Below, one piece after another: positions 48,320 to 55,987 of a stretch of 64,000 bases of DNA. Position 1 is the first letter of the stretch. Each line of letters begins with the position of its first letter. This DNA is from Gemmatimonadota bacterium. GTDB lineage: Bacteria; Gemmatimonadota; Gemmatimonadetes; Gemmatimonadales; JACORV01. A model generated the notes under the pieces. That model searched no databases. It was not told where the DNA came from and saw nothing but the letters and a program-made list of their open reading frames with translations. A program made the position numbers and the translations under genes. The stretch lies in NCBI GenBank assembly GCA_041476105.1, contig JBGOSS010000006.1, forward strand, positions 1,099 through 65,098, in the 5' to 3' direction.

Positions 48320-50062
48320 CTACCGCGAGAACAGCATCCGGTCCCGTTCGGCCTGCGTTCCCGCCTTATAGAAGTCGGCGAACCAGGCCGGCTTCCCGGT
48401 CATCGCCTCGGGCTTCCGGAGCGTGAGGATCCCCTCGGCCTTCTTGGCCTGGCTCTTCTTCTTGGCCTTGTCGGCGTCCCGCATCGTCGAGCGGAAGTGC
48501 AGGTGGTCGAAGACGCGCAGGGCCTCGATGGCGTAGCCGACCGCGATCTTGGGGTCCTCGATCATGATCAGGTGGTCGCCGTTCCCCTTCTCGCCGCTGG
48601 GCGCCAGGTTGGACGATCCGGTGAACACCTTCGCGCTGGGCAGGCTGAAGTCCGTCACCACGAACTTGTGGTGCACGTTGATGCCCCCGCCCCCGCTCCA
48701 CTCGCTCTTGAACGGCTCGGGCGCGTTCTTCGCGAGATAGGCGAAGTCCACCAGCCCGGTCGAACCGTCGGGCTTCTTGATCTCGAGGGTGCCGGCCTTG
48801 TCCACCACGCCATAGCTGAACACCGGCCGCTTCATGAGCCGGTCGAAGGCCTCCTTGGTGGGTCCCGACCGGATCTGGCTGAGGAACGCCACGGCATAGA
48901 AGACCGACGAGGTGGCCTGGTCGATCGCCCCGCGCACCGGGTTGAGTGAGAGGTCCGACGACTGGTGCGGGGAAAAGCAGAGCTGCACCGACGGGTGGTT
49001 GTCGGTCGCGGCCAGGTGCCACTTCGAGGCGATGGGATCCTTGGCGAAGGCCGCCGGGTCGGCGAAAGCGGCGTCGAAGACGCGGCCGAACTGGCCGGCG
49101 ACGTCGGCCGAATGGAACACCAGCACGTTGTTGGCCTGGATGTAGATCCCGCGGAAGCTGAAGTTCGTCGAGCCCGCCAGGACCTTGAACGGCTTTCCGT
49201 TGCGCTTCGCGATGAACACCTTGTTGTGCTGAAGGCCCTGGAAGTGGGTGCGCCGCGCATGAGCGGCACCCGCGGAGGCCTTGAGCACCTTGAAGGCCTT
49301 CGACTCGTCGCTTCCCGCGGCCAGGTGCCCCTGGGCCACGCCAGCCTTGCTGCCGCCCGAGTCATCGACGATCACCCGCAGCCGGTGACCCAGCGCCTTG
49401 AGCCGGGCCACGATATCCGGCTCGTTGAGGTCGTAGGCGAAGACGTCCAGCTCGATGGTGGGATCATCCACCGCTTCCTTGAGGAACGCGAAGAGCAGGT
49501 CGTAGGCCTCGAAGCCGAGCCAGTCGTAGACCTCGCCCGGGATCTTCTGGAACGTGAGTCCCGACTCCTTCGACGGAATGACGTTGGGGTTGTTCCCGAA
49601 TTTCTCCGCGTAGGCCTGCGACGAGGCGAAGCCTCTCGTGAACCCGACGTCGAGAAAGTCGTCGTAGGTCACCGGGTCGAGCGAGATCGGCAGCTCGATC
49701 GCCGTGCCTTTCGCGAGGCTGCCGTCGGGCCGCATGTGCATCTTGGTGCCGCGGTAGGTGTACACCCCGGCCTTCGGATCCCGGGGAAAGTGCACCCACC
49801 GGAACTTCTGGAAGGGCGCGCCCGTCGAGGGAAACTGCCGCGCCCCGGTCACCGCGGTGGTGGCGGCCTTCGGGTACGCGAAGGCGAGCCGGTTCAGCAA
49901 CGGGTCGAACTGCGGCGACCCCGGTGCCTTGCACTCGATGGCGAAGCCCACGAGGTCGGCCTCCGCCGCCACGACGTCGAAGCCGACGAGACACATGCGT
50001 TCGCCGCGCCACAGCTTCATCAAGAACCCGTTGGTGTCGTGCTGGCTCATGAAGTCCGACAT
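48320..50062 (-). CDS. Phospholipase D-superfamily protein with two HKD motifs, no signal peptide
   Basis: GGGAGGA upstream of the ATG. HKD-1 LQHNKVFIAKRNG...LAGSTNFS. HKD-2 VHHKFVVTD...FTGSSNLAPSGEKGNGDHL. About 110-aa N-terminal beta-rich domain. Lys-rich C-terminal tail (KAKKKSQAKKAEG). Confidence 0.8.
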   Translation of the reverse strand: MSDFMSQHDTNGFLMKLWRGERMCLVGFDVVAAEADLVGFAIECKAPGSPQFDPLLNRLAFAYPKAATTAVTGARQFPSTGAPFQKFRWVHFPRDPKAGVYTYRGTKMHMRPDGSLAKGTAIELPISLDPVTYDDFLDVGFTRGFASSQAYAEKFGNNPNVIPSKESGLTFQKIPGEVYDWLGFEAYDLLFAFLKEAVDDPTIELDVFAYDLNEPDIVARLKALGHRLRVIVDDSGGSKAGVAQGHLAAGSDESKAFKVLKASAGAAHARRTHFQGLQHNKVFIAKRNGKPFKVLAGSTNFSFRGIYIQANNVLVFHSADVAGQFGRVFDAAFADPAAFAKDPIASKWHLAATDNHPSVQLCFSPHQSSDLSLNPVRGAIDQATSSVFYAVAFLSQIRSGPTKEAFDRLMKRPVFSYGVVDKAGTLEIKKPDGSTGLVDFAYLAKNAPEPFKSEWSGGGGINVHHKFVVTDFSLPSAKVFTGSSNLAPSGEKGNGDHLIMIEDPKIAVGYAIEALRVFDHLHFRSTMRDADKAKKKSQAKKAEGILTLRKPEAMTGKPAWFADFYKAGTQAERDRMLFSR

Positions 50063-51258: not shown

Positions 51259-52473
51259 ATGTCACGCCGCACGGCCGTACGCTTCGCCCTCTGCTCGCTG
51301 GCCGGCATCGGGCCGTTCCGGGCCGTCCTCGCGCAGGATGCCTACGTCTACTACGACCACCGGCCGGGAGCGGCGGGCCTCGACGGCCGTCTCAGCTACA
51401 TACGATCCGGCGGGGATCAGACGGACCGGCAGCTCGGCCGGCCGCCGGCATTGAGCGTGCCCAACGGGTCGCAGGTGTGCATCCAGGTCACCAGCCGCAA
51501 CGACGTGCTGTACACCTATGCGATCGGCGTCAAGAACGTGGCGGCGGACACGATTCCCGGCCTGGCCGCCCTCGTCAAGCAGCTTACCGACGCCCTGGCC
51601 ATCCCCCACCCACTGGCCGTCACCGACGGCTACCTCACCACCGTGGCCCACCTCTACGAGCGTCTCCTCGAGCTCCAGGTGGCGCAGCTCGGCTCCGACA
51701 GCATCGCCGACATCGCGGCGTCGGCAGCGGGGGTCGCCAGCCTCTTCGCCAACGCCACGGAAGCGAACAACGCGGCGAACACCGCCTTTGCCGATCTCGG
51801 CGGGGCGAACTCGTCGCCCCCGGCCCGCCTGCTGCGCCTCGTGCAGACGGATCTGTGGCAGCGCATCACGGCGATCAATGCGCGTTTCCAGCGCGCCCGC
51901 CAGACCGCCGACGATCCGCTCTGCACCAAGGTGGGATCGAGCCGCCTGCGGATCACCCTGAAGATCGCGCGCAGCACCGTGGATTCGGCCGGCCGCCCCC
52001 AGCGGCCCGTCGGCGACACCGTGGTGACCCTCGACGTGCATCCCCAGGACAACCGCCTGGTCATCGTGGAACCGGGCACCATCGTGAGCGTCTTCACCCA
52101 GGAGAAGAGCAGCTTCGGCGTGAGCGGCGGCGTCGTGACGCAGACCCGGGACCGCAGCCCCGGCCTGCACGCCGGCGTCCTCGCCATGTTCCGGGCCGGC
52201 TCGATCGACTGGCTCTATCTGACCTTGGGTGTCGGCACGGCGGAGAAGAGCGTCGCCGACGTGCTGCTCGGCGTGACGATGCGCGGCGGCGCGTCGCTGG
52301 TCGGCGGCCGCCTCAGTATCGGGGTGGGACTCGCGCTCTCGCGGGTGCCGGTCGGCCTGTCGCAGGGCACCGTGGGCGGCGCGCTTCCGGCGACCATCAA
52401 GAACGTCAACGACATCGTCAAACGCGACTTCCGCGCCGGGCTCGCCGTGTCGTTCGCCCTGAACGTTTCCTGA
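51259..52473 (+). CDS. Hypothetical secreted protein (404 aa), first gene of the 51259-55330 cassette
   Basis: Signal-like N-terminus FALCSLAGIGPFRAVLAQ. Central helical region and a Gly/Val-rich beta-like C-terminus. No recognised motif. The antisense 763-aa ORF is rejected. Confidence 0.6.
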   Translation: MSRRTAVRFALCSLAGIGPFRAVLAQDAYVYYDHRPGAAGLDGRLSYIRSGGDQTDRQLGRPPALSVPNGSQVCIQVTSRNDVLYTYAIGVKNVAADTIPGLAALVKQLTDALAIPHPLAVTDGYLTTVAHLYERLLELQVAQLGSDSIADIAASAAGVASLFANATEANNAANTAFADLGGANSSPPARLLRLVQTDLWQRITAINARFQRARQTADDPLCTKVGSSRLRITLKIARSTVDSAGRPQRPVGDTVVTLDVHPQDNRLVIVEPGTIVSVFTQEKSSFGVSGGVVTQTRDRSPGLHAGVLAMFRAGSIDWLYLTLGVGTAEKSVADVLLGVTMRGGASLVGGRLSIGVGLALSRVPVGLSQGTVGGALPATIKNVNDIVKRDFRAGLAVSFALNVS

Positions 52474-52527: not shown

Positions 52528-53505
52528 ATGGAACTGTCTTCCGCGCGTGAGCTGAAGGCGAAGTTGCACGAGAGCGTGCTGAGGCCCCTGAAGGCCGCGC
52601 AGGGTCGCGCCTTCGGCATTGCGGCGCAGTCGCTGGCGCGCGGGGCATCGGCGCACCGGTCGATCGCACTGGGCATTTCCGCCCGAACCGGCTCCGGATT
52701 CCAGCTCGCCGTGCGGGTCCAGCGGGAGGAATTGCACGGTGGCGAGCAGGTCGAGGCGATCCGGAAGGCCACGAAGGGCGAAGTGGACGTGGTCTTCGTG
52801 GGCCAGCTCTCGAAGCGGGCACCGAACCGGATCCGGCCGCTCCAGATCGGCTGCTCGATCGGGCACGTCTTCGTGACGGCGGGGACGCTGGGTGGCTTCG
52901 CGAAGAGCCGGGACGGAACCGGGGGCAAGCTCGTGCTCTCCAACAATCACGTGCTGGCCAACGAGAACAACGCCAAGGCGGGCGACCTCGTGCTCCAGCC
53001 GGGCATTGCCGACGCGGGACAGAACCCGGCCGACGTAGTGGGGAACCTGGTCCGGTTCGTGCCGCTGGCGACCACCGGCCCGAATCTTGTGGACTGCGCC
53101 GTCGCCTCCGTCAACGACGGGATCGCGATCGATGAGCATGGGTTGCCCGGGATCGGCACCCTCCGGGGCCTCGGGGTTCCGCCCGACAAGGGCGTGCAGG
53201 TGTCCAAGGTGGGCAGAACGACCGACGTGACGCGGGGCGTGGTGACGGCCTTCGAGCTCGACAACGTGGTCGTCGGGTACGACATCGGCAACGTGAGCTT
53301 CGACGACCAGGTCGAGATCGAGGGAGCGGGCACGCTGCCGTTCAGCGGCGGCGGCGACAGCGGCTCGCTGATCGTGAACGGCGCATTCGAAGCGGTGGCG
53401 CTGCTCTTCGCCGGCGGCGAGCAGGGCGGCTCGAACGGGCGCGGCCTGACCTACGGGAACCCGATCCGCGCGGTGCTCGATGCGCTCCAGATCGACCTGC
53501 GCTGA
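52528..53505 (+). CDS. Trypsin/chymotrypsin-fold (S1) serine peptidase without signal peptide
   Basis: GAGGAGGA 4 nt upstream of the ATG. Triad contexts LVLSNNHVLAN (His), LVDCAVASV (Asp) and FSGGGDSGSLIV (Ser). About 100-aa N-terminal extra domain. Confidence 0.75.
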   Translation: MELSSARELKAKLHESVLRPLKAAQGRAFGIAAQSLARGASAHRSIALGISARTGSGFQLAVRVQREELHGGEQVEAIRKATKGEVDVVFVGQLSKRAPNRIRPLQIGCSIGHVFVTAGTLGGFAKSRDGTGGKLVLSNNHVLANENNAKAGDLVLQPGIADAGQNPADVVGNLVRFVPLATTGPNLVDCAVASVNDGIAIDEHGLPGIGTLRGLGVPPDKGVQVSKVGRTTDVTRGVVTAFELDNVVVGYDIGNVSFDDQVEIEGAGTLPFSGGGDSGSLIVNGAFEAVALLFAGGEQGGSNGRGLTYGNPIRAVLDALQIDLR

Positions 53506-53762: not shown

Positions 53763-53776
53763 GTCCCGAGGGTCAC

Positions 53777-55330
53777 GTGCCCGAACTCAACGTCGTCGTC
53801 GATCTCTCCCATCACAACGCATCCGTCGATTTCGTCCGCGCGGGCAGCGCGGGCATCCTCGGCGTGATCCACAAGGCCACCCAGGGCACGCACTTTACCG
53901 ACGCCAGGTACACGGAACGGCGCCCCCTTGCGGCGGCGGCGGGGCTGATGTGGGGCGCCTATCACTTCGGCGTGGCGGGCGACGTCGAGCAGCAGGTGGA
54001 CCACTTCCTCGCGGTGGTGAAGCCGCAGCCCGGGGACCTGCTGGTCCTCGATTTCGAGGAGAATACCGCGGGCGACAGCATGACGCTGGCCGAGGCGGAG
54101 GCCTTCGTCACCCGGTTGCACGACAAGACCGGCCGCTGGCCTGGGCTGTACGGCGGGCAGCACCTGAAGCAGCTTCTGGGCGCGCAGCGGAGCACGCCCC
54201 TCGCCTCGTGCTGGCTCTGGCTGGCGCAGTATTCGGGCACGGTGCACCTGCCGGCCGCGTGGTCGCGCTGGACGATGTGGCAGTACACCGACGGCGCCGC
54301 GGGACCCGAGCCCCACATCGTCGACGGTATCGGGGCCTGCGATCGGGACCGGTTCAACGGCGACCTGGCCGCCCTGCGGGAGCTGTGGGGCCATGCGCCG
54401 ATCCCGGCGGCCGCCGCCTCGGCCGTGGTCGCCCGCCCAGCTTCCGTCGCCCCGAGGGATGCCGCCATGCCCGAGTCGATCGACGCGATACAGCCGAAGC
54501 GCCCCTCCTGGTGGCGCCGCTCCCTGATCGGAGAGGCGCGAGTCGCCCGCCTCAACAGTGACCTCAACCAGCTCAAGGACTCGCTGGTGTTGCGCCGCGA
54601 CCAGGTGCCCCAGGATCGGAAGGTTCACCTCGAGGGCGCGCTGGCGATGCTCGGGCACGCCCAACGCGCGATGGAGTACCGCGATCTCAACACCGGTTGG
54701 GCGCTCGTCCATGAAGCCGAGCGGGAGTCGACCTTCGCCGACAACGCGGAGGAGCTGCTCCACCAGGCCGACCGCCTGCGCGAGGAGGTCCGCGAGAAAC
54801 TCGGCGGGTGGCGCCAGCACGCGGCCCTTCGCGCGCTGGGTGACGCCGGCTCGGTGCCCACTGTGGAGGCGGTTCGCGAAGCGCTCAGGATCCGCAACGA
54901 GCATTCCCACAACCTCTACCACAAGTTCGACCTCGCCGCGGGCCAGGTCGCGCTCATCGGACTGCTGCTGCTGGGCGGCGTGCTGGCGATTCTCATCGCG
55001 TCGTGGCTCGGCGCCGCGCCGCTCGGCGTCTACACCCTGCGGCTGGGCTGGGCGGCGCTGCTTGGCGGCGTCGGCGGGCTGCTCAGTGCGGCGCGGGGTC
55101 TCGCCCAGGGAACCCAGCGCAAGATCCCCGAGCAGATCGCGGATTGGCCCGTCACACTCGTCCGGCCGGTCCTGGGCGCCACGGCGGGCGTGGGCGCCTG
55201 CCTGCTGGTGACGGCGGGGATGGTGTCGCTGGGGGCAGGCAACGAGCAGTTGGCGCCGCTGATCGCGGCGTTCACGGCGGGGTTCAGCGAACGCTACTTC
55301 CTGTCGATCCTGCCCTCGGGCGAGAAGTAG
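53777..55330 (+). CDS. GH25 muramidase domain (no signal peptide) fused to helical linker and C-terminal four-helix membrane module
   Basis: GAGGG 4 nt upstream of GTG 53777. GH25 signatures VVDLSHHN, GVIHKATQG, LVLDFEE (DxE), WLAQY, MWQYTD, DRDRFNG. Residues about 391-510 contain four hydrophobic segments. Confidence 0.8.
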   Translation: MPELNVVVDLSHHNASVDFVRAGSAGILGVIHKATQGTHFTDARYTERRPLAAAAGLMWGAYHFGVAGDVEQQVDHFLAVVKPQPGDLLVLDFEENTAGDSMTLAEAEAFVTRLHDKTGRWPGLYGGQHLKQLLGAQRSTPLASCWLWLAQYSGTVHLPAAWSRWTMWQYTDGAAGPEPHIVDGIGACDRDRFNGDLAALRELWGHAPIPAAAASAVVARPASVAPRDAAMPESIDAIQPKRPSWWRRSLIGEARVARLNSDLNQLKDSLVLRRDQVPQDRKVHLEGALAMLGHAQRAMEYRDLNTGWALVHEAERESTFADNAEELLHQADRLREEVREKLGGWRQHAALRALGDAGSVPTVEAVREALRIRNEHSHNLYHKFDLAAGQVALIGLLLLGGVLAILIASWLGAAPLGVYTLRLGWAALLGGVGGLLSAARGLAQGTQRKIPEQIADWPVTLVRPVLGATAGVGACLLVTAGMVSLGAGNEQLAPLIAAFTAGFSERYFLSILPSGEK

Positions 55331-55731
55331 CCCGGCAGCGATTGCAGGCGGGGCTGGACGTCTCGCAGCAGGGTGCGCGCATCGTCGAAGGCCAGGCGCT
55401 GGAGCGCCTGCTCGAACGGATACCAGGCGAGCGACCTTCCCGGCTCGGGAACGCCGGCATCCCGCGTCACCAGGACGAAATAGTGGACCTCGATGGTGTC
55501 GGCACCCAGCCGGAAGGACTGTGAGCCGGCGGGCCCCACGATCCGCCCACGCACGCCGGCCTCCTCGCTGGCCTCGCGGATCGCGGCGGCCTCGAGGCTT
55601 TCACCCGGCTCCACGTGCCCTTTCGGGAAGATCCACGTGGCCGGGCCGCCCTTCGCGGTGACGAGGAGCACTTCCGGTAGGGCCGCGGATACCCGGACGA
55701 TGATCGCCCCCGCCTCCAGTACCGTTGCCAC
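55294..55731 (-). CDS. NUDIX hydrolase
   Basis: Nudix box GHVEPGESLEAAAIREASEEAGV. Confidence 0.85.
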   Translation of the reverse strand: MATVLEAGAIIVRVSAALPEVLLVTAKGGPATWIFPKGHVEPGESLEAAAIREASEEAGVRGRIVGPAGSQSFRLGADTIEVHYFVLVTRDAGVPEPGRSLAWYPFEQALQRLAFDDARTLLRDVQPRLQSLPGYFSPEGRIDRK

Positions 55732-55747: not shown

Positions 55748-55987
55748 CTACACCCGATCCATGTCGGACGGCGCTCCCGACGGCTTGCCCGACACCATCG
55801 CGGCCACCTTGTCCGCGAGACTCGGCGCGACCACGCGCAGCACCAGGTAGACCACGTATCCCACGGCCGCCAGCATCAGCACCGTGATGCCGAGACCGAT
55901 GATGGTCCCGAGCAGGCCGAACACGATCTTCAGTACCAGCCACGCGACAACCGCCAGCACGGCGAATCCGAGAATGCGGCGCATCAT
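55748..55987 (-). CDS. Small two-TM membrane protein
   Basis: ILGFAVLAVVAWLVLKIVFGLLGTIIGLGITVLMLAAVGYVVYLVL. Lies 16 nt upstream of the NUDIX gene on the same strand. Confidence 0.55.
   Translation of the reverse strand: MMRRILGFAVLAVVAWLVLKIVFGLLGTIIGLGITVLMLAAVGYVVYLVLRVVAPSLADKVAAMVSGKPSGAPSDMDRV

Follow-up and report, generated by a model that had tools for sequence, protein, structure and literature searches.

Endolysins that carry a membrane domain at the C-terminus are an already known concept, realised so far with domains unrelated to those described below. M4Lys of Salmonella phage BSPM4 lyses cells without a holin or the Sec pathway, is lytic only as the full-length protein, and loses this activity when its transmembrane domain is removed (PMC7143992). 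Similarly, only the full-length form of ORF39 from Hafnia phage Enc34 is lytic or toxic, and its C-terminal membrane domain is needed (PMC8943055). We analysed a 64,000-nucleotide stretch of a Gemmatimonadota genome (GenBank assembly GCA_041476105.1, contig JBGOSS010000006.1, positions 1,099 to 65,098; hereafter the window), in which an open reading frame (ORF) at positions 53777-55330 encodes a GH25 muramidase domain followed by a membrane module. The original prediction, based on the sequence alone, proposed that this protein unites endolysin and holin in a single polypeptide. Our analyses suggest that the 517-residue protein is probably a chimera in which two complete units, each folding independently of the other, have been joined in a single lineage. 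The GH25-module architecture is new, and it is a one-off chimera found in one lineage of soil bacteria. By sequence, the module belongs over its full length to a large family of inner-membrane proteins that is uncharacterised.

The window protein resembles C-terminal transmembrane domain endolysins of the M4Lys/Enc34/Chivirus type in that a signal-less N-terminal wall hydrolase precedes C-terminal membrane helices. The catalytic domains of those endolysins are of the PHA02564/virion-protein type, whereas that of the window protein is GH25. They have one or two membrane helices and no 160-residue bundle, whereas the tail of the window protein has four helices and such a bundle. Finally, they sit in phage lysis cassettes, whereas the window tail belongs to a cellular, chromosomal family partnered with NUDIX hydrolases. 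By analogy, the window protein may work like the M4Lys and Enc34 endolysins, but it is not a member of that group.

The ORF starts at the first in-frame start codon 3′ of the preceding stop. GC content at third codon positions (GC3) hardly differs between the GH25 half (0.91) and the membrane half (0.90), which indicates that both halves are coding in the frame of the ORF. Pfam matches, hydropathy and GC3 thus confirm the predicted gene, with GH25 at residue 1 and hydrophobic segments at the C-terminus. Its extent and the catalytic elements of its GH25 half are as follows:

53777..55330, + strand: whole chimeric ORF, 517 residues, GTG start at 53777, TAG stop at 55328-55330
53768..53772, + strand: GAGGG Shine-Dalgarno-like motif 4 nucleotides 5′ of the GTG start, from sequence inspection
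53777..54394, + strand: GH25 muramidase domain, residues 1-206 (Pfam accession PF01183, GH25 matches in the PDB, predicted local distance difference test score (pLDDT) >90)
53801-53803 (D9), 54050-54052 (D92) and 54056-54058 (E94), + strand: catalytic-motif residues, aligned to solved GH25 enzymes

The Pfam family Glyco_hydro_25 (PF01183) matches residues 8-173 (E=8e-29; score 101.6 bits, cut-off 27), and PHROG endolysin families match residues 7-212 with E-values down to 7e-33. D9, within the sequence VVDLSHH, and D92-F-E94, within LDFEE, align with the DISH and LDME/LDLE motifs of the GH25 structures 6zmv and 5a6s. We take D9, D92 and E94 to be the catalytic residues, following published work on Cellosyl. 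Motif conservation suggests that the GH25 domain is catalytically intact, and the ORF product is a bona fide GH25 protein, its catalytic half being of the signal-less, single-domain endolysin type with predicted muramidase activity.

Along its entire length, the GH25 half shares 50-62% identity with signal-less single-domain GH25 proteins of 205-224 residues, which stop a few residues past a ...LWG sequence that corresponds to residue 206 of the window protein. GH25 proteins with a PG_binding_1 domain (about 287 residues) are similarly close; relatives of these two types at 50-62% identity include P0004, P0007 and P0197-P0204. The nearest phage copies are the lysozymes of Wolbachia phage WO (46-48% identity). 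These single-domain and PG_binding_1-containing proteins, which include the phage WO ‘lysozyme M1’ and have the Cellosyl-type fold, share the N-terminus and the D/DxE motifs of the window GH25. They differ from it in ending after ...LWG or adding a peptidoglycan-binding domain, and none has a membrane module.

The N-terminus of the window protein (MPELNVVVDLSHHN) is the same as that of stand-alone relatives of 205-212 residues, such as P0200 (MPILNSIVDLSHHNG), so nothing is missing upstream and there is neither a signal peptide nor a signal-arrest-release (SAR) helix. Residues 1-380 contain no hydrophobic segment; the highest Kyte-Doolittle hydropathy over 19 residues is 1.18. The relatives' N-termini and this hydropathy maximum bear out the claim that the catalytic domain begins at residue 1 without an export element. 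The protein is not a SAR- or Sec-exported endolysin by these measures, as residues 1-380 contain neither a signal peptide nor a weakly hydrophobic N-terminal helix.

The contexts of the nearest GH25 relatives (P0007, P0015, P0199, P0200, P0204) are unrelated chromosomal settings with no lysis cassette and no common neighbour. The closest signal-less relatives each lie directly 3′ of a different protein: one of 506 residues (L005/L006, 4401-5921), one of 405 residues (L083, 3732-4949) and one of 336 residues (L084, 1489-2499). These upstream proteins have no confident family match, and show no homology to one another or to a 404-residue protein encoded in the window upstream of the chimeric ORF.

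The remainder of the window protein consists of a linker, treated below, and the membrane module (residues 231-517), whose parts are:

54467..54940, + strand: cytoplasmic helical bundle, residues 231-388, beginning at the methionine that starts stand-alone homologues
54941..55009, + strand: transmembrane helix 1 (TM1), residues 389-411; strong (hydropathy 2.7), continuous with the stalk helix in the AlphaFold2 model
55037..55093, + strand: TM2, residues 421-439; glycine-rich and marginal (hydropathy 1.37), with the conserved motif LxGxLGGxLSA
55166..55234, + strand: TM3, residues 464-486; hydropathy 1.94, preceded by the motif KIPE...T..RP..GA in a lysine/arginine-rich cytoplasmic loop
55250..55309, + strand: fourth hydrophobic helix pair, residues 492-511; mean hydropathy 1.16 (below the 1.3 threshold), with GFSER at residues 502-506 (nucleotides 55280-55294)

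The hydrophobic segments predicted at residues ~391-510 are therefore located as claimed: TM1 and TM3 are clear, TM2 is marginal, and the fourth falls below the threshold. The charged helical region predicted ahead of them is also real, and takes the form of a five-helix bundle (pLDDT >90) in the AlphaFold2 model. Built on a 70-sequence alignment, the module model has a pLDDT of 92 and a predicted TM-score (pTM) of 0.84. Its elements follow in the order five-helix bundle, long stalk helix running into TM1, TM2, TM3, and two short C-terminal helices.

Residues 231-517 align without gaps to residues 2-288 of a 288-residue stand-alone protein, P0002, at 62% identity (BLASTP). Because this alignment begins at residue 2, the start methionine of P0002 corresponds to M231 of the window protein. 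Across the 70 aligned sequences the conserved positions are RL, GW, E..KL..WR, R(D/N)EH..N.Y.K, LxGxLGGxLSA, KIPE, T..RP..GA and GFSER. In the last of these, module residue G272 is invariant, and conservation reaches at least 90% at each of F273, S274 and E275. The window module has all of the family motifs RL, GW, E..KL..WR, LGGxLSA, KIPE, RP..GA and GFSER.

A profile search of 1.84 billion representatives of 50%-identity clusters identified 1,176 members of the module family at E<=1e-3, of which 715 reach E<=1e-10. In species-representative genomes, a pattern search placed relatives in Gemmatimonadaceae, Bacteroidota, Saprospiraceae, Actinomycetota, Chloroflexia, Verrucomicrobiia and Xanthobacteraceae, and in one archaeon. 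A further profile search with the 70-sequence alignment in a word-indexed database gave 13 matches and no new architecture. No described family accounts for the module: the window protein has no NCBIfam match, no Pfam family is matched above threshold among family members, and there are 0 PHROG matches. The PDB contains no match to the module, either by fold or by sequence profile. The specific alternative that the tail is a known anchor of housekeeping autolysins is likewise not borne out.

The wider superfamily (L015-L041; Actinomycetota, Chloroflexia, the archaeon and others) shares the last three helices and the motif AF[LV]AGFSER[WY], with longer and different N-terminal regions.

Several observations bear on how the protein is inserted into the membrane. 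First, no export signal lies ahead of the 390-residue N-terminal region. Second, the mean number of lysines plus arginines over 70 family members is 3.0 in the N-terminal flank, 0.7 in loop 1, 3.6 in loop 2, 0.4 in loop 3 and 2.2 in the C-terminal tail, an alternation that indicates an in-out-in-out-in arrangement. Third, NUDIX hydrolases act on cytoplasmic nucleotides, and NUDIX domains are fused N-terminally in most long members of the family and C-terminally in two others (P0126 and P0183), which places both termini of the module in the cytoplasm. The three lines agree on an N-in/C-in topology, which is very probably correct, and the GH25 domain almost certainly sits in the cytoplasm. The N-in topology of the original prediction is thus upheld as very probable by the charge counts in the 70 members and by NUDIX domains at the same N-terminal position.

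An exported, membrane-anchored housekeeping autolysin would have the opposite orientation, with a periplasmic GH25 domain and C-terminal helices that act as a mere anchor. Some bacterial wall hydrolases are tethered to the inner membrane, and no cytoplasmic GH25 substrate is known, both of which speak for such an arrangement. It is nonetheless very improbable: the protein has neither a signal peptide nor an N-terminal hydrophobic helix, the positive-inside pattern puts the N-terminal flank inside, and homologues carry a cytoplasmic NUDIX domain at the same position. In addition, there is no known route for translocating an N-terminal domain of ~390 residues before C-terminal helices, a point on which the authors of the Enc34 study concur (PMC8943055). 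Export of the GH25 domain, the outcome at odds with the original prediction, is unlikely given the missing signal and the positively charged inner flank.

The module family has a close association with NUDIX hydrolases, and the window retains a partner gene:

55294..55731, - strand: partner NUDIX hydrolase gene, 145 residues (Pfam NUDIX, E=4e-18), convergent with the chimeric ORF and overlapping its 3′ end by 37 nucleotides

Contigs were examined for four stand-alone close relatives, and in three of these a NUDIX gene directly adjoins the module gene. In L001/L002 and L010 the NUDIX gene lies immediately upstream and is co-directional, and in L008/L009 it converges on the module gene with a 49-nucleotide tail-to-tail overlap (L008, 5810-5858). 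The fourth stand-alone relative, P0045, has no visible NUDIX neighbour, with the Pfam assignment of one neighbour not looked up. The window NUDIX shares 57% identity with its L008 counterpart and 44% with the NUDIX encoded upstream of P0002, and the modules of the window and L008 are 47% identical. The tail-to-tail overlap of module and NUDIX genes (55294-55330 in the window) has thus been kept between the window and L008 though the proteins are only 47-57% identical, and represents a conserved antisense 3′ overlap.

Fusions point in the same direction. Among the top 150 family members, 39 have at least 380 residues. We scanned 20 of these with Pfam, and 14 contain a NUDIX domain, N-terminal in 12 and C-terminal in two (P0126 and P0183); the remaining 19 long members contain a NUDIX-box motif. 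The six scanned members that lack a NUDIX match have no confident Pfam domain, with one weak, sub-threshold TPR_16 match. NUDIX is the only recurrent fusion partner of the module among these 39 proteins. Family members with a fused (P0054, P0062, P0126, P0183) or neighbouring (P0002, P0043, P0147) NUDIX share with the window protein the full-length module (27-62% identity), the same motifs and the same NUDIX type. They differ in having NUDIX or nothing at the N-terminus, a position occupied by GH25 only in the window protein.

In NCBIfam, the N-terminal and adjacent NUDIX domains are nearest to the MutT1 N-domain, below its cut-off, and the C-terminal type is RppH-like, with P0126 reaching the cut-off of NF001938. 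These MutT1-like and RppH-like types indicate that two different NUDIX lineages have been recruited. We considered assigning a substrate to the NUDIX partners and rejected this, as no substrate can be claimed from sub-threshold MutT1 N-domain or RppH-like similarity.

The two halves of the window protein meet in a short linker:

54395..54466, + strand: Ala/Pro-rich linker HAPIPAAAASAVVARPASVAPRDAA, residues 207-230; probably composed of what used to be the GH25 gene's end and the module gene's 5′ leader
54454..54459, + strand: internal GAGGGA Shine-Dalgarno-like motif, 7 nucleotides 5′ of the ATG at 54467 (M231)

In the full-length AlphaFold2 model, residues 208-230 are disordered (pLDDT <50) and both flanking domains score >90. 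The model has a pTM of 0.59, which indicates that the GH25 and membrane domains have no fixed mutual orientation. The linker sits exactly between the end of the stand-alone GH25 relatives and the start methionine of the stand-alone module P0002. It shows none of the codon-position periodicity in GC content seen in the flanks, with a second-position GC content of 0.79 compared to 0.47-0.48 there. A GAGG(G) motif also occurs 6-8 nucleotides 5′ of the module start codon in L001 and L008. No stop codon is found in any frame across the junction.

The best reading of the protein is a recent read-through of a signal-less lysozyme gene into the gene of a NUDIX-partnered membrane protein. A GH25 gene would have been read through into the module gene, joining both units, and the 24-residue Ala/Pro linker would be the translated former gene end plus the 5′ leader, including the translation-initiation region of the module. 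The GAGG motif and the ATG codon of M231 persist inside the ORF, so that the module may also still be made alone. The fusion may be young and functionally neutral or incidental, a view that we hold tentatively and with slightly less than even confidence.

A number of points weigh against these interpretations. The junction (nucleotides 54395-54466) is known from one assembly only, and a search with residues 170-300 found no independent junction-spanning fragment and returned only single-domain GH25 proteins, although this is a weak test that missed even the identical protein P0001. The only other copies are 99.3-99.4% identical and break off within the ORF, after 57 and 20 codons, too similar and too short for a measure of selection on the fusion. 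By hydropathy the fourth membrane helix is marginal, and a geometry of three transmembrane helices plus a re-entrant segment is possible, with the N-in orientation unchanged. Nor does NUDIX accompany the module everywhere: a search with an ad hoc hidden Markov model and motif detected none within 5 kb at 31 genome loci of the wider superfamily. There is no comparative signal for membrane permeabilisation by the module. Matches to YLATT are sub-threshold, occurring in four of the 70 family members (best E=4.7e-4) and in L018 (E=0.047, model positions 7-99 of 107). SLATT_fungal is matched by two of the 70 at E=0.15, below the gathering score, and S-4TM is not among the families listed.

The first of these points raises the question of whether the fusion exists in the organism. 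An assembly, sequencing or annotation artefact could have joined a GH25 gene of ~206 residues to a 287-residue module gene (ATG at 54467) through an error in the bases that eliminated a stop codon or caused a frameshift. Consistent with this, the junction occurs in one contig only, the linker ends exactly at the start methionine of the homologues with the GAGG motif kept, and the linker composition is non-coding-like. At ~70% GC, moreover, stop codons are rare in every frame, and a single error would yield a long fused ORF. On the other hand, both halves lie in one frame with uniform GC3, and no stop in any frame across the junction hints at a lost terminator. Two independent metagenome contigs (L003 and L004) reproduce the flanking sequence at 99.3-99.4% identity to the window without indels, which suggests good consensus quality; both confirm the upstream genes, together with only the first 57 codons of the ORF in L003 and the first 20 in L004. 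We consider such an assembly or indel artefact improbable.

If the chimera is genuine, an N-in/C-in insertion would leave an intact muramidase on the cytoplasmic face without access to peptidoglycan. The flexible linker would tether the enzyme at the membrane, where it would be latent and would cut the wall only after a breach of the membrane. Lipid II and GlcNAc-anhMurNAc lack the MurNAc-(beta-1,4)-GlcNAc bond that muramidases cut. A cytoplasmic role for the GH25 domain, such as muropeptide recycling, was set aside on this established knowledge of muramidase substrates.

By sequence comparison, the module is not a holin homologue. It has no PHROG match, a single one of the 70 members has a weak Pfam match to Phage_holin_3_6 (E=0.008), and a fold search of predicted viral structures (BFVD) gives no module match at E<1. 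Searches of 50,697 phage records (INPHARED), 72,556 plasmids and IMG/VR yielded no copy of the module. The protein also does not resemble a holin-type component of a phage lysis cassette: the module has 287 residues including a soluble bundle of 160, there is no phage copy, and the window is not a prophage. The proposal that the tail is the holin part of a combined lysis device is thus unsupported; the tail is an independent NUDIX-partnered family without holin or phage matches, and none of 36 other module loci has GH25 as a neighbour.

In an updated form of the original prediction, the protein would be a self-contained lysis effector. The module would be a conditional pore- or lesion-forming unit, perhaps gated by a nucleotide that the NUDIX enzyme destroys, and the fused muramidase would provide full lysis in programmed death, abortive infection or the release of cell contents. 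Several features of the locus fit this idea. The GH25 domain is cytoplasmic, intact and tethered to the membrane module, and the partner NUDIX gene is retained in the window. TM2 and TM3 are Gly/Ala-rich, the fourth helix contains the invariant polar GFSER sequence, and the weak recurrent YLATT matches span the last three helices of the module. Elsewhere, a membrane domain at the C-terminus allows an endolysin to act without a holin (PMC7143992, PMC8943055), and NUDIX is combined with transmembrane effectors in CBASS-type systems and UG23 (PMC9226505). Against it, GH25 and the module show no recurrent association, their fusion being a single case; significant similarity of the module to holins, SLATT, S-4TM or phage proteins is lacking; and PADLOC reports only LeoBC, at E=0.05, which is no real match. 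The chromosomal neighbourhood is ordinary, without a defence island or prophage. We regard a lysis effector of this kind as rather unlikely. It is doubtful, if slightly less so, that the module itself provides the breach, for example as a ligand-controlled pore restrained by NUDIX in a one-polypeptide lysis effector analogous to M4Lys.

Small transmembrane cores are combined with nucleotide-processing enzymes, including NUDIX, in the SLATT, YLATT, S-4TM and 2TM-NUDIX (CBASS, UG23) effectors (PMC9226505, PMC7159879). Membership of the module in SLATT, YLATT or S-4TM is doubtful. Unlike these, the window module has no match at the Pfam threshold, and no cyclase, SMODS, reverse transcriptase or STAND partner is present in the loci examined. 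SLATT, YLATT and S-4TM domains also have no large cytoplasmic helical bundle, unlike the module. More generally, we did not see signal generators or sensors of the SMODS, TIR, STAND or reverse transcriptase type in the module loci examined; only NUDIX is recurrent, and PADLOC detects no system.

It is quite improbable, though a little less so than an artefact, that the family of helical bundles with four transmembrane helices represents a new prokaryotic class of ligand-controlled pores in which NUDIX sets the level of a nucleotide ligand, a counterpart in bacteria to NUDIX-coupled channels and to suicide effectors of the SLATT/YLATT type. The window protein would then be a muramidase bolted onto such a pore, breaching the membrane and cutting the wall. 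TRPM2-type ‘chanzymes’ combine an ion channel with a NUDT9-homology NUDIX domain that binds or hydrolyses the nucleotide controlling the membrane part. They resemble the NUDIX-fused family members in joining NUDIX to a multi-pass membrane protein, an analogy only, as they are eukaryotic and their membrane fold is unrelated.

The association of GH25 with the module is confined to the window protein. The sole full-length match to the 517 residues is the identical P0001 (an NCBI assembly, on a contig of 118,883 nucleotides), and all remaining matches span one half. The 36 other module loci, 328 kb in all, contain no GH25. The layout that the original prediction described as unfamiliar is indeed without a second example: full-length, profile and junction searches and the 36 loci revealed no other GH25 protein with this tail.

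A real and active chimera would be a muramidase of cellular, not phage, origin that needs no holin because it brings its own membrane module, with parts unrelated to those of M4Lys and Enc34. It could also serve as a compact lysis cassette and for testing how endolysins in the cytoplasm can cross the membrane. If the fusion is an accident or artefact, it cautions against reading a mechanism from a domain architecture seen once. The module family, with at least 1,176 clusters, has a confidently predicted fold, no solved relative and a tight evolutionary link to NUDIX. This uncharacterised NUDIX-partnered membrane family is the more durable result, and follow-up work would find in it a cleaner target than in a fusion seen once.

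The gene content of the window is that of an ordinary chromosome, with kinases, two-component systems, a subtilase, an SLT transglycosylase and a PadR regulator with an ABC permease, at a uniform GC content of ~0.70. Neither gene content nor GC content shows signs of a prophage or defence island in the window.

Upstream of the chimeric ORF lie a 325-residue trypsin-like protease (52528-53505, + strand; phrog_20754 at E=5e-38 and a weak Nal1_C match) and, directly 3′ of it, a 79-residue protein (to 53762). These form a conserved two-gene cassette, as a homologue of the small protein is found directly 3′ of the protease in 34 of 41 metagenome loci (L042-L082). GH25 is absent from all 41 loci that contain this upstream protease cassette. 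We rejected a larger operon that would include the chimeric ORF and the upstream genes, as neither GH25, the 404-residue protein, the module nor NUDIX ever accompanies the protease cassette in the 41 loci, and the downstream genes there are unrelated housekeeping genes.

The 404-residue protein (51259-52473, + strand) heads the same-strand cluster and has a signal-sequence-like N-terminus with SRR (MSRRTAVRFALCSLAGIGPFRAVLAQ). No family matches this protein, and its conservation is limited to L003, which is 99% identical. Just 5′ of the NUDIX gene, on the same strand, is a gene for a 79-residue, holin-sized protein (55748-55987, - strand) with two hydrophobic helices and a polar tail, which has no Pfam or PHROG match. 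Farther upstream, a 580-residue PLD-like (HKD) protein (48320-50062, - strand) resembles DrmC of DISARM (PADLOC, E=2.8e-8), and its GC content is 0.64-0.67 compared to ~0.70 around it.

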